Assembly: GCF_054482525.1 (NCBI RefSeq)
Contig: NZ_CM137006.1
Reading direction: 5' to 3' (one strand)
DNA: 64,000 bases
Shown: positions 2,029 through 9,470 of the stretch, in pieces
How positions within the stretch are numbered: position 1 is the first letter of the stretch
Layout of the letters: each line of letters starts with the position of its first letter
Notes under the pieces: model-generated
Seen by the model: the letters and a program-made list of their open reading frames with translations, nothing else
The model's database searches: none
Told to the model about the DNA's origin: nothing
Program-made: the position numbers and the translations under genes

Positions 2029-4024
<1,996 letters not shown>

Positions 4025-5482: not shown

Positions 5483-6430
5483 ATGCGTGTGTTACTGGCA
5501 CCGATGGAGGGTGTACTCGACTCTCTGGTGCGTGAATTGCTGACCGAAGTTAACGACTACGATCTGTGCATCACCGAGTTTGTCCGCGTGGTGGATCAAC
5601 TGCTGCCGGTAAAAGTCTTTCATCGCATTTGCCCTGAGCTACAAAATGCCAGCCGGACACCTTCCGGTACGCTGGTGCGCGTGCAGTTGTTAGGTCAGTT
5701 CCCACAATGGCTGGCAGAGAACGCCGCCCGTGCGGTGGAGTTAGGTTCCTGGGGCGTGGATCTCAATTGCGGCTGCCCGTCGAAAACGGTTAACGGTAGC
5801 GGCGGTGGGGCGACGTTACTCAAAGAGCCTGAACTCATCTATCAGGGTGCAAAAGCGATGCGTGAAGCTGTACCGGCGCATTTGCCCGTCAGCGTGAAAG
5901 TGCGTCTGGGCTGGGACAGCGGTGAGAAGAAATTTGAAATCGCCGATGCGGTTCAACAGGCTGGTGCTACAGAGCTGGTGGTGCATGGGCGGACGAAAGA
6001 GCAGGGTTACCGCGCGGAGCATATTGACTGGCAGGCGATTGGCGAGATTCGCCAGCGGCTGAATATTCCGGTGATTGCCAACGGTGAAATCTGGGACTGG
6101 CAGAGCGCGCAACAATGCATGGCGATCAGCGGATGCGACGCAGTGATGATTGGTCGCGGGGCGCTCAATATTCCCAACCTGAGCCGGGTGGTAAAATATA
6201 ACGAACCGCGAATGCCGTGGCCGGAGGTGGTTGCTTTGCTGCAAAAATATACTCGTCTGGAAAAGCAGGGCGATACCGGGTTATATCACGTTGCGCGGAT
6301 TAAACAGTGGTTGAGTTATTTGCGTAAAGAATACGATGAAGCAACGGAATTATTTCAGCATGTTCGGGTGTTGAATAATTCCCCTGATATTGCAAGGGCT
6401 ATTCAGGCAATGGATATCGAGAAACTCTAA
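5483..6430 (+). CDS. dusC: tRNA-dihydrouridine(16) synthase DusC
   Basis: Start placed at ATG 5483 ([11 protein letters not shown]...) giving 315 aa; recalled identity to DusC. Confidence 0.93.
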
Positions 6431-6444
6431 AAAACCATAGTGAT

Positions 6445-6760
6445 GTTTTTTGACAATGTGTTAGCTCTTTATCAATAGGCCGCACGGTTGTTTGGTGGCG
6501 TCAAAATCGCCGAGGCGTTCCCCGAAGGCCGGGGCAGCCCACATGGATGTGGGCTGAGGGCGCGTTTTACAGGGATGTTACCTCGCGCCCGACCCGGTAG
6601 CCGTAAGGGATAAGCCGAGGGCACCGCGCAGCGGCGATTTTGTTCGCCAGAGCCCGGGGGTGCAGGGGGCGGCGGCGATTGGTCGCCCCCTGCGCGCTCC
6701 TTGCGCCAGTGATTATATGAAGCAATGCACATGACAGGAGCGCAACAGGATGAGAGACTG
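6445..6760. repeat. GC-rich, palindrome-dense intergenic element of unknown class (not canonical REP)
   Basis: About 300 bp of high-GC sequence with several short hairpins (gcccacatggatgtgggc, ggcgattttgttcgcc, ggcgattggtcgcc) between dusC and yohP; the only ORF in it is Pro/Gly/Arg-rich and looks spurious. Confidence 0.4.
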
Positions 6761-6802
6761 AAATATTCTCGTTATTTTCGGATCTGATGACATTAATTAA
6801 TT

Positions 6803-6886
6803 TTAAAATATCATCTTAAATACGCCAGTCACCACCAGTAGCCCAATCAGGAAAATAATCAATACAGCCCAGAGTATAATTTTCAT
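6803..6886 (-). CDS. yohP: small membrane protein YohP (27 aa)
   Basis: Minus-strand translation MKIILWAVLIIFLIGLLVVTGVFKMIF; below the ORF-track length cut-off; recalled match to YohP. Confidence 0.8.
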   Translation of the reverse strand: MKIILWAVLIIFLIGLLVVTGVFKMIF

Positions 6887-7109
6887 TGGCGTTCCTTTAT
6901 TTGTGAGTGCTGAATAAGTATAGGAAAAAACGAAGCCCTTTGCCGTTATCCATAAACGATTAAGATAAATCGGAAGATATCATTCACTTAGTGTATATTT
7001 TTCTGGATATGTCGTTTTATTGCTACTGATGTATTGCCACGCGAAACTAAAAAATATATCGCAACACACGGTAATCTCCGCGCACCTTTTCTTACCTGAT
7101 TATTCCCCC

Positions 7110-8546
7110 ATGAATCGTGATTCTTTTTATCCAGCCATCGCCTGTTTTCCGCTGTTACTGATGCTGGCCGGGTGTGCGCCTATGCATGAAACCCGCCAGG
7201 CGTTAAGCCAGCAAACGCCCGCTTCACAAGTTGACACCGCATTACCCACGGCGCTGAAAAATGGTTGGCCAGACAGCCAATGGTGGCTGGAGTATCACGA
7301 TAATCAACTCACTTCCTTAATTAATAACGCACTACAGAACGCACCGGATATGCAGGTGGCTGAACAGCGCATTCAACTGGCTGAAGCACAGGCGAAGGCA
7401 GTTGCCACTCAGGATGGTCCGCAGATCGACTTTTCTGCGGATATGGAGCGGCAAAAAATGTCTGCAGAAGGGTTAATGGGGCCGTTTGCTCTGAACGATC
7501 CTGCCGCAGGTACGACCGGTCCGTGGTACACCAACGGTACTTTTGGCTTAACGGCGGGCTGGCATCTCGATATCTGGGGAAAGAATCGGGCGGAGGTAAC
7601 TGCTCGCCTGGGTACGGTTAAAGCACGGGCGGCGGAACGCGAGCAAACCCGCCAATTGCTGGCTGGCAGTGTAGCCCGCCTGTACTGGGAGTGGCAAACC
7701 CAGGCGGCGTTAAACACTGTCTTACAGCAAATCGAAAAAGAGCAGAACACCATTATCGCCACCGATCGCCAGCTATATCAGAACGGGATTACTTCTTCAG
7801 TTGAAGGTGTGGAAACCGATATTAATGCCAGCAAAACCCGGCAGCAGCTCGACGATGTCGCGGGGAAAATGAAAATTATTGAGGCACGGTTAAGCGCACT
7901 TACAAATCACCAGACAAAGGCATTGAAGCTTAATCCGGTCGCGTTGCCGAAAGTGGCAAGCCAGCTTCCTGATGAACTGGGGTACTCCTTACTGGCGCGG
8001 CGGGCAGATTTGCAGGCGGCGCACTGGTACGTTGAGTCATCGTTAAGCACTATTGATGCGGCAAAAGCGGCATTTTATCCTGACATCAACCTGATGGCCT
8101 TCCTGCAACAGGATGCGTTGCACTTAAGCGATCTGTTCCGTCATTCCGCGCAGCAAATGGGCGTTACGGCAGGCCTGACGCTACCCATTTTCGATAGTGG
8201 TCGTCTTAACGCCAACCTCGATATCGCAAAAGCCGAAAGCAACTTGTCTATCGCCAGCTACAACAAAGCGGTGGTTGAAGCGGTGAATGACGTGGCGCAG
8301 GCAGCCAGTCAGGTTCAGACACTGGCGGAGAAAAACCAGCATCAGGCGCAAATTGAGCGCGATGCCTTGCGTGTAGTAGGTCTTGCGCAGGCGCGCTTTA
8401 ACGCGGGCATCATTGCGGGTTCCCGCGTCAGCGAAGCCAGAATCCCCGCGCTGCGTGAGCGGGCCAATGGCCTGTTATTGCAAGGGCAGTGGCTGGATGC
8501 CTCCATTCAACTCACTGGTGCGTTGGGCGGGGGTTACAAACGTTGA
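7110..8546 (+). CDS. mdtQ: outer-membrane efflux lipoprotein (TolC/NodT family) MdtQ, intact
   Basis: Start placed at ATG 7110 (MNRDSFYPAIACFPLLLMLAGC, lipoprotein signal with lipobox Cys); uninterrupted frame, whereas K-12 carries a pseudogene. Confidence 0.85.
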   Translation: MNRDSFYPAIACFPLLLMLAGCAPMHETRQALSQQTPASQVDTALPTALKNGWPDSQWWLEYHDNQLTSLINNALQNAPDMQVAEQRIQLAEAQAKAVATQDGPQIDFSADMERQKMSAEGLMGPFALNDPAAGTTGPWYTNGTFGLTAGWHLDIWGKNRAEVTARLGTVKARAAEREQTRQLLAGSVARLYWEWQTQAALNTVLQQIEKEQNTIIATDRQLYQNGITSSVEGVETDINASKTRQQLDDVAGKMKIIEARLSALTNHQTKALKLNPVALPKVASQLPDELGYSLLARRADLQAAHWYVESSLSTIDAAKAAFYPDINLMAFLQQDALHLSDLFRHSAQQMGVTAGLTLPIFDSGRLNANLDIAKAESNLSIASYNKAVVEAVNDVAQAASQVQTLAEKNQHQAQIERDALRVVGLAQARFNAGIIAGSRVSEARIPALRERANGLLLQGQWLDASIQLTGALGGGYKR

Positions 8547-9389: not shown

Positions 9390-9470
9390 GTTAGGCCAGA
9401 TAAGACACGCCAGCGTCGCATCAGGCATGGTGCACCGGATGTCGGATGCGGCGCGAACACCTTATCCAGG
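9390..9470. repeat. pair of inverted REP elements (BIME-like)
   Basis: aggccagataagacacgccagcgtcgcatcaggcat and caccggatgtcggatgcggcgcgaacaccttatcc between the convergent yohF and yohD. Confidence 0.6.

Follow-up and report, generated by a model that had tools for sequence, protein, structure and literature searches.

The GC-rich element between dusC and yohP is, by its sequence, the TRIP1c repeat (RRS-dusC), with a predicted multi-helix fold that covaries across enterobacterial genera

What is the GC-rich, palindrome-dense DNA that separates dusC from yohP? The question arises from a preliminary description of a 64,000-nucleotide stretch of contig NZ_CM137006.1 (RefSeq assembly GCF_054482525.1), here called the window, in whose numbering all coordinates are given unless another locus is named. 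That description drew a box around positions 6445 to 6760 and offered three guesses at what lies in it: a structured RNA, a degenerate mobile-element remnant, or a recombination scar. The element is real, but it has already been described and named: by its sequence, it is the TRIP1c repeat, also known as RRS-dusC, one of the Replication Risk Sequences (RRS). None of the three guesses names its documented activity, that of a DNA element that triggers post-replication gaps. The combined reading favored here, that the element is TRIP1c/RRS-dusC, that it acts by the gap mechanism published for the K-12 copy, and that selection acts on its whole fold, appears highly probable. As the element has been named since 1999 and has had an experimentally supported function since 2023-2024, little is added to it as a discovery; the modest additions of this analysis are a covariation map, a comparison of the G-quadruplex (G4) tract with the hairpin that shares its sequence, and a likeness to the TwoAYGGAY motif.

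Identity of the element

The jump in composition on which the preliminary description was based is evident in 100-nt windows, in which the GC fraction is 0.56-0.73 over positions 6450-6749, compared with 0.37-0.39 in the flanks. The box at 6445-6760 thus encloses a genuine GC-rich block, but the element proper is somewhat narrower: homology among the E. coli copies spans positions ∼6480-6758, and the core shared across genera spans ∼6492-6751. Whether K-12 has the element at the same site, a point that the preliminary description left to be checked, can be answered in the affirmative. The dusC-yohP interval of K-12 strains is 98.9% identical over 372 bp including flanks, and the MG1655 copy shows 99.0% identity over 311 nt; this K-12 copy carries no annotation in RefSeq.

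TRIP1 repeats have been described since 1999 (Rudd 1999, Res Microbiol 150:653). A recent survey (Li et al. 2024, Genes 15:236, PMC10888264) placed them at loci a (aqpZ-ybjE, i.e., lysO), b (putP-ycdN), c (yohI-yohG, i.e., dusC-mdtQ), d (alx-sstT), and e (copA-ybaP), with 0 to 5 copies per genome and with alleles in both orientations, forward and reverse, at a and c, predicted a “double-Y” fold, and reported large inversions mediated by these repeats; TRIP1c was given as 273 bp long, with 62-65% GC. The same DNA has been studied under the name of RRS (Pham 2023, NAR, PMC10287960; Pham 2024, NAR, PMC11194060; Kusi-Appauh 2026, bioRxiv, 10.64898/2026.06.16.732529). In the Pham papers, RRS-dusC, 222-224 bp long, is one of two near-identical E. 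coli RRS that were found by ssGap-seq.

The window copy matches these descriptions in detail. The published 20-mer that forms the G4 and the RRS-1F primer (GATGTTACCTCGCGCCCGA, at 6574-6592) are both found as exact matches, and the element begins 43-58 bp past the dusC stop codon, which fits both published definitions. Its fold is very stable on both strands, as is typical of this GC-rich family (62-65% for TRIP1): compared with dinucleotide-preserving shuffles, the z-scores for the two strands are -6.5 and -7.1 when folded as DNA and -5.1 and -5.1 when folded as RNA, and none of 200 shuffles folded as well. The published features map to the window as follows.

6474-6746, plus strand (the G-rich “sense” strand): TRIP1c at its literature limits (273 bp, starting 43-44 bp past the yohI/dusC stop), as placed from Li et al. 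2024, in agreement with the homology limits of ∼6480-6758
6488-6711, plus strand: RRS-dusC, the segment removed in the deletion of Pham et al. 2024, which by their definition runs from 58 to 281 bp past dusC
6656-6675, plus strand: published G4-forming tract GGGGGTGCAGGGGGCGGCGG, an exact match to Pham et al. 2024, overlapping the 5' arm of hairpin 3

The novelty implied by the preliminary description was therefore misplaced, as the segment matches a named repeat family, the very outcome that it had listed as speaking against its reading.

Covariation of the fold across genera

Several short perfect hairpins and repeated ggcgatt...gcc units were noted in the preliminary description, and both are readily found. 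Two inverted repeats have 10-nt arms that match perfectly (6535-6544/6547-6556 and 6662-6671/6684-6693), a long-range pair of 16-nt arms (6502-6517/6627-6642) is 88% complementary, and the unit GC(A/G)GCGGCGATT occurs twice, at 6621-6639 and at 6662-6680. The predicted fold of the plus strand comprises the following parts, whose helix numbers refer to the alignment described below.

6491-6649, plus strand: 5' domain, a long closing stem around a junction with two hairpins, TwoAYGGAY-like by the alignment to RF01731; helices 1-6 covary
6496-6516 with 6614-6649, plus strand: arms of the closing stem, with tandem G.A/A.G at 6512-6513 and 6617-6618
6535-6556, plus strand: hairpin 1, a 9-bp stem with the loop within CAUGGAUG (inverted repeat I3, 100%); in helix 7, 7 of 9 pairs are changed on both sides
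6558-6590, plus strand: hairpin 2, an outer 7-bp stem, an internal loop, and a 2-bp inner stem with the loop within ACAGGGAUGU (helices 8-9)
6624-6634, plus strand: mini-hairpin CCGC-GCA-GCGG, a branch of the closing stem (helix 10)
6662-6693, plus strand: hairpin 3, GCAGGGGGCG / CGCCCCCTGC with a 12-nt loop (inverted repeat I4, 100%); in helices 11-12, 6 of 9 pairs are changed on both sides
6694-6743, plus strand: hairpin 4, GCGCTCCT / AGGAGCGC with a 34-nt variable loop (inverted repeat I8; helix 13)

A MAFFT alignment of 86 sequences with less than 97% pairwise identity yielded an RNAalifold consensus with 13 helices and 67 pairs. The closing stem is in three parts and contains the tandem G.A/A.G; besides it there are two inner stems, the mini-hairpin, which covaries, hairpins 1 and 2, and a further two hairpins on the 3' side. 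Standard pairs occupy 94.6% of the alignment cells, as opposed to 38-43% when the partners are slid by 1-3 columns. Changes on both sides are seen at 41 of the 67 pairs and amount to 721 cells, compared with 205 ± 12 in column shuffles, none of which (0 of 500) reached 721, and the covariation score is 0.350, compared with 0.04-0.08 in the slid controls. This result bears out the suggestion that the element is folded and conserved.

The compensatory changes are spread over the fold. Helices 1-3 together have 18 pairs, of which 98.6-98.8% of cells are paired and 15 are changed on both sides, and the tandem G.A/A.G is flanked by covarying pairs (6510-6516/6614-6620). Helix 10 is paired in 99.7% of cells, and three of its four pairs are compensatory (CCGC/GCGG, UUGC/GCAA, UCGC/GCGA, and CCAC/GUGG). 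Helix 13 is paired in 98.8%, and both partners have changed in three of its seven pairs (compare GCGCUCC/GGAGCGC with ACGUUCAC/GUGAACG). Because these 13 helices are kept by compensatory changes across genera, selection is likely to act on the whole multi-helix single-strand fold and not on the G-tract alone. Non-Watson-Crick cells show a ratio of G-U to A-C of 75:32, an approximately 2-fold preference for the G-rich (plus) strand; Watson-Crick compensation preserves both strands, so this bias does not separate RNA from single-stranded DNA. For studies of RRS, the cross-genus alignment can serve as a helix-by-helix map of selection, with its 13 helices, two invariant loops, and tandem G.A.

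The G-quadruplex tract and hairpin 3

The tract to which G4 formation has been attributed is also the 5' arm of hairpin 3, the pairs of which covary, from GGGGG/CCCCC in Escherichia to AAGGG/CCCTT in Citrobacter. Four runs of at least three G's in the region of the K-12 G4 are present in only 2 of the 86 copies. A relaxed motif (runs of at least two G's, loops of up to 7) is present in 63 of the 86 and missing from 23, mostly of the Citrobacter type. Given that the G4 motif is partly kept while the hairpin covaries, selection appears to be visible on the hairpin and the whole fold and only partly on the G4 potential. A partly conserved G-tract that doubles as a hairpin arm makes “G4 versus whole fold” a testable question for RRS.

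Replication gaps as the likely activity

In K-12, peaks of RecA and SSB in ssGap-seq are located on the lagging strand adjoining each RRS and are lost upon its deletion (Pham papers cited above). The G-rich strand blocks Pol I, Pol II, and Pol IV in vitro, ectopic copies recreate the gaps, at least one RRS is required unless a 200-kb region is amplified (a conditional essentiality), and loss of both RRS alters global supercoiling (Pham 2024, PMC11194060). Single-molecule experiments showed a gap at nearly every encounter with the replisome when the G-strand was the lagging template and in ∼66% of encounters when the C-strand was; on the leading template, neither strand was effective (Kusi-Appauh 2026, 10.64898/2026.06.16.732529).

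By the mechanism that others have established in K-12, passage of the replisome would leave the lagging-strand template briefly single-stranded, and the GC-rich element would fold very stably on it, the emphasis of those authors being on a G4 in the G-rich strand. Lagging-strand synthesis would then halt, the Okazaki fragment would be abandoned, and SSB and RecA would load onto the resulting gap, which can reach ∼2 kb. The K-12 pair, ∼650 kb on each side of dif, has been proposed to serve as topological relief valves or as boundaries of the Ter domain. Gap formation by the allele in the window is assumed by analogy with the K-12 copy, to which it is 98.9% identical. Synteny and a K-12-like orientation relative to dusC suggest that this copy, too, lies ∼650 kb from dif and has its G-rich strand as the lagging template.

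Several observations weigh against this reading. Both orientations occur at one site, with ∼39% of complete genomes carrying a divergent or reverse allele at dusC, and 2952 forward and 2789 reverse alleles have been counted (Li et al. 2024, PMC10888264). As gaps form with either strand on the lagging template, however, this natural polymorphism of orientation becomes less paradoxical. The number of copies, which varies from 1 to 10 among E. coli genomes and is 13 or more in a Klebsiella pneumoniae chromosome, is a poor fit to a strict function of “one symmetric pair around dif.” The patchy G4 motif described above, with its longer G-runs confined to two copies and its relaxed form missing mostly from Citrobacter-type copies, is a further such point. 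Finally, the strictly conserved CANGGAYG loops (see below) are left unexplained by a generic model in which any foldable DNA would suffice.

Distribution, orientation, and mobility

The preliminary description proposed a BLAST search of the E. coli pan-genome. When 5,426 complete E. coli genomes were searched with megablast, the element proved to be a dispersed repeat, with 15,528 places in 5,425 of them, a median of 3 per genome, and a maximum of 8-10; within the 64-kb window, blastn found no second copy. Further E. coli loci are lysO-aqpZ and alx-sstT. At both dusC-yohP and lysO-aqpZ, the element has opposite orientations in different strains, and internally deleted derivatives also exist. 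These loci, copy numbers, and orientations were recovered here independently but had all been published before.

Outside E. coli, 100,044 species genomes were scanned with a 35-nt pattern made of columns invariant in the E. coli, Klebsiella, and Citrobacter copies. The scan returned 106 DNA stretches; together with the earlier loci, there were 117 matches, of which 113 were true homologs by blastn. Four matches, in Desulfovibrio, Granulicella, and deltaproteobacterial metagenome-assembled genomes (MAGs), were similar in nothing but the pattern and were set aside as chance. Copies are found in Citrobacter, Enterobacter, Klebsiella, Silvania, Atlantibacter, Pseudocitrobacter, and Superficieibacter, as well as in Escherichia albertii and Escherichia whittamii, and several genomes have at least 5 copies. 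Salmonella gave no match to the pattern, which itself limits the sensitivity of the scan. Contigs from MAGs labeled Desulfacinum, “Proteobacteria bacterium,” and Sporobacter termitidis carry copies that are 83-94% identical to the E. coli element, and the S. termitidis copy groups with those from Klebsiella; all three are probably mis-binned enterobacterial contigs. In K. pneumoniae CP125156, two copies form a direct tandem 437 bp apart (locus L010, positions 1047-1778). In strain LR-21-1 (NZ_AP027487.1, 1686341-1687977), an IS1A is inserted in the dusC-yohP interval, beside or inside the element.

Such a distribution might be expected of a selfish or neutral dispersed repeat, similar to miniature inverted-repeat transposable elements (MITEs) or REP (repetitive extragenic palindromic) sequences, for which the replication gap would be a by-product of stability and which would spread, or be exchanged, among intergenic “cassette” sites by recombination or by a trans-acting enzyme that reads the folded single strand. 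This alternative is considered unlikely, although much of the distribution speaks for it: presence varies from locus to locus, internally deleted and tandem copies exist, copy numbers reach from 5 to at least 13 per genome in several genera, large inversions are mediated by TRIP1 (Li et al. 2024), and the Psychromonas seed sequences of TwoAYGGAY are multi-copy, too. At alx-sstT, the element sits as a whole cassette in place of unrelated repeat DNA, with no target duplication. Where that spacer lacks TRIP1d, as in the K-12-type sequence (L006:476-873 versus L003:2925-3539; handles with L denote loci compared here), it is occupied by one or two units of another repeat, whose palindromes are of the CCCTCTCCC...GGGAGAGGG type. 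The spacer thus behaves, judging by these comparisons, as a position at which cassettes are swapped in and out.

Between dusC-yohP and lysO-aqpZ, the reverse alleles share 95% identity, but each shares only 90-92% with the forward alleles of its own locus, and the immediate flanks differ as well (L004:3001-3277 and L008:534-800, compared with window positions 6480-6758 and L002:3001-3273). This similarity across loci, which would also suit a selfish repeat, suggests two coevolving subfamilies or an exchange of cassettes instead of simple flips in situ. A simple invertible switch is accordingly unlikely, as the sequences of the two orientation alleles at a locus diverge by 8-10% and the DNA flanking them is different, too.

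Against a selfish repeat stand the ends of the element, which, in filled-versus-empty comparisons at alx-sstT and lysO-aqpZ, show cassette replacement with neither terminal inverted repeats nor target-site duplication. The long inverted arms (P1) do not form the ends either, as the 3' domain lies beyond them; a MITE with inverted ends and target duplication was rejected on these grounds. No transposase, reverse transcriptase, or RAYT-like gene was seen beside the copies inspected. No phage copies were found. Each of the “plasmid” matches is to a non-mobilizable record, and several of these records are the size of a chromosome (13 places fall in a single K. pneumoniae chromosome); a phage- or plasmid-borne element was rejected on this basis. 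The conditional essentiality of the pair in K-12 is likewise at odds with a neutral repeat. Of the original guesses, the mobile-element remnant therefore finds no backing in inverted ends or target duplications, and the recombination scar is not supported either. The DNA element that programs replication gaps remains the preferred explanation.

Conserved loops and a possible RNA

Of the 86 copies, 80 have CATGGATG as the loop of hairpin 1. The search pattern itself included this loop; copies found by BLAST have CAUGGAUG as well. Hairpin 2, whose loop was not imposed by the pattern, keeps CA-N-GGA-Y-G in nearly all 86 copies (one has GGAGG); its N may be any of the four nucleotides or may be missing. 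Loop 1 reads AUGGAU, which fits AYGGAY; loop 2 reads AGGGAU in the window, with R in place of Y, and AUGGAU in ∼13 of 86 copies. GGA and the flanking C-A...Y-G are nearly invariant. CANGGAYG is a hairpin motif of the CsrA/RsmA type, in line with the CsrA SELEX consensus RUACARGGAUGU. Long variants in Silvania (L059:6385-6679), E. whittamii (L082:8466-8760), and Enterobacter sichuanensis (L092:1328-1622) share an insertion of ∼75 nt that comprises four small hairpins, one of them with a third CAAGGAUG loop (alignment columns 176-252).

The Rfam search suggested in the preliminary description gave one credible match, to TwoAYGGAY (RF01731, clan CL00106), on the plus strand and over its full length (1-168), but its 28.5 bits (E = 0.031) fall short of the gathering threshold (43 bits). 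Other copies, in Citrobacter and Enterobacter, score 31.4, 32.0, and 37.2 bits, and no reportable match was seen in the other loci scanned; the gathering score was reached in 0 of 18 copies, and the element is at most a candidate member. The highest score belongs to a match in Enterobacter quasihormaechei (L049, 2064-2316), the second TwoAYGGAY-like one there, which lies on the opposite strand ∼125 bp from the first. No known Rfam family was matched at threshold, the remainder being chance-level matches to AgvB and snoRNAs; the AgvB match (6720-6780, minus strand, 22.9 bits versus 56, E = 0.06) lies just beyond the element.

These loops raise the alternative that the element, or its 5' domain, is a structured RNA of the TwoAYGGAY class that binds or sequesters CsrA or another loop-reading protein. 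A transcript of the G-strand would display two CANGGANG loops ∼28 nt apart, a spacing that suits one CsrA dimer. Besides the Rfam match and its higher scores in other genera, this alternative draws on the architecture shared with TwoAYGGAY (a long P1 with tandem G.A, seen here in helices 1-3, and two A-N-GGA-Y hairpins) and on the ACAUGGAUGU 10-mer that the multi-copy Psychromonas seeds share identically with TRIP1. The free N within an otherwise fixed loop 2, the third loop gained by the long variants, the G-U:A-C bias toward the plus strand, and the resemblance of the loops to the CsrA consensus point the same way. Past the dusC stop codon there is no terminator ahead of the element, so that transcription running on from dusC would produce an RNA of the sense strand. 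A CsrA role for TwoAYGGAY, a motif described by Weinberg et al. 2010 (PMC2864571), has been proposed (Gardner and Eldai 2015), and possible transcription of TRIP1 has been suggested (Li et al. 2024).

An RNA of this kind is nevertheless quite improbable here. Promoter and terminator signals do not rise above those in shuffled sequences; the single promoter-like site (6787-6814, plus strand, 10/12) lies outside the element, is directed into the 3' end of yohP, and is within chance expectation. The G-rich strand of the lysO-aqpZ copy is antisense to both neighbors, and, with both orientations at one locus, read-through cannot yield the same RNA everywhere. The genes dusC and ybjE (lysO) are listed as “No” in CLIP-seq and in three other sets of CsrA-binding data, so that the published CLIP tables lend no support to CsrA binding, although these tables are gene-based and may have lost intergenic or multi-mapped reads. 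A small RNA (sRNA) of the CsrB/CsrC type, with many GGA sites and its own promoter and terminator, is not a match either: two loop sites are present (three in the long variants) and no terminators were found. Compensatory Watson-Crick changes preserve DNA hairpins equally well, and the activity shown experimentally is at the DNA level. For these reasons, namely, the lack of promoter and terminator signals, the antisense lysO copy, the two orientations, the negative CsrA sets, and the demonstrated DNA activity, the published DNA mechanism is kept as the best explanation, with RNA/CsrA as a minority rival. The conserved loops and the TwoAYGGAY link are the only leads that this leaves.

Coding and REP readings and the gene neighborhood

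A variant REP, BIME, or RIP sequence, or a gene for an 86-aa Pro/Gly/Arg-rich protein, can be given practically no weight: the element is intergenic, GC-rich, and palindromic and does contain an open reading frame (ORF), but blastn finds no similarity to the REPs of the window at 3103-3132 and 9390-9470 or to any other window sequence, its unit of ∼270 bp with 13 helices differs from a REP palindrome of ∼35 bp, and the ORF is open and in phase in just 2 of the 85 other aligned copies, whose pattern is one of base-pair covariation and not of codon conservation. On both points, the preliminary description, which had considered the frame a matter of chance and the element not a canonical REP, was correct; the sequences at 3103-3132 and 9390-9470 are, as it stated, ordinary REP-type sequences (GCCGGATGCGGCG-like), unrelated to the element.

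6472-6732, minus strand: 86-aa ORF from the ORF list, not a gene
5483-6430, plus strand: dusC, tRNA-dihydrouridine(16) synthase; the ORF ends at 6430, the start is placed from the length of the syntenic K-12 gene (948 nt), and megablast matches are annotated as dusC
6803-6886, minus strand: yohP, 27-aa small membrane protein, the 3' neighbor of the element; an ORF here, annotated in K-12 and other genomes

The gene order dusC-element-yohP-mdtQ (the latter from ∼7020) is identical to that in K-12. The mdtQ (yohG) gene (7020-8546, plus strand) is an intact long ORF here and in CU42ET-1; it is annotated as a pseudogene in K-12 MG1655.

Comparison with known systems

Compared with TRIP1 as described by Rudd 1999 and Li et al. 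2024, the element is the same, at the same loci and in the same orientations, and there is no difference in kind. The study of Li et al. 2024 was limited to E. coli and to folding of single sequences, and it did not include cross-genus covariation, comparison with Rfam, or the loop motifs. The RRS are the same DNA as well, down to the exact G4 tract and primer site. The RRS papers describe pairs that flank Ter and “a few” extra copies, whereas many are found here in Klebsiella and Silvania, and the published model is centered on the G4, whereas in the present alignment the tract forms the 5' side of a hairpin that covaries, with the G4 motif kept only in part. Neither the TRIP1 nor the RRS papers mention Rfam, TwoAYGGAY, CsrA, or covariation.

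The pilE G4 of Neisseria gonorrhoeae is likewise a G-rich structure on one strand that triggers a replication-associated gap, and it has been named as the only other programmed gap-forming element (Kusi-Appauh 2026, bioRxiv, 10.64898/2026.06.16.732529). It is, however, a short G4 of 16 nt linked to antigenic variation, has no conserved multi-helix fold, and is not a dispersed repeat. REP and BIME sequences are similarly intergenic, GC-rich, and palindromic and occupy variable intergenic “cassette” sites, but they share no sequence similarity with TRIP1, which is ∼8 times longer and present in few copies rather than hundreds. The CsrB, CsrC, and RsmZ sRNAs (clan CL00106) also have GGA in hairpin loops, in a CANGGANG context, with spacing compatible with a dimer. 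They carry ∼9-22 such sites as opposed to 2-3 in TRIP1, for which no promoter or terminator of its own was detected and no CLIP support was seen at the flanking genes, and which is a dispersed repeat of variable orientation.

TwoAYGGAY is a structural parallel; among 12 papers found on it, none of the seven listed deals with TRIP1 or RRS. TRIP1 and TwoAYGGAY share a long closing stem that contains tandem G.A, two adjacent hairpins with A-Y/N-GGA-Y loops, and further 3' hairpins, and both are multi-copy in a gammaproteobacterial genome. TRIP1 differs in being much GC-richer, in scoring 28.5-37.2 bits against a threshold of 43, in having a second loop that is usually AGGGAY and not AYGGAY, and in having an extra mini-hairpin and a defined 3' domain; moreover, TwoAYGGAY is filed as an RNA, whereas the activity of TRIP1/RRS has been demonstrated at the level of DNA. 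It is tentatively suggested, as a possibility that falls well short of being probable, that the TwoAYGGAY class includes TRIP1/RRS as its GC-rich branch in enterobacteria. In that case, either the TwoAYGGAY elements of Psychromonas, Clostridia, and gut metagenomes would be RRS-like foldable DNA that programs replication gaps, or the function of RRS would need a factor that reads the two CANGGAYG loops (CsrA on an RNA copy or a protein that binds single-stranded DNA) and not a G4. Were the likeness real, it would provide the first functional lead for a motif that has been an orphan for 15 years and would extend RRS-like elements beyond the Enterobacteriaceae.

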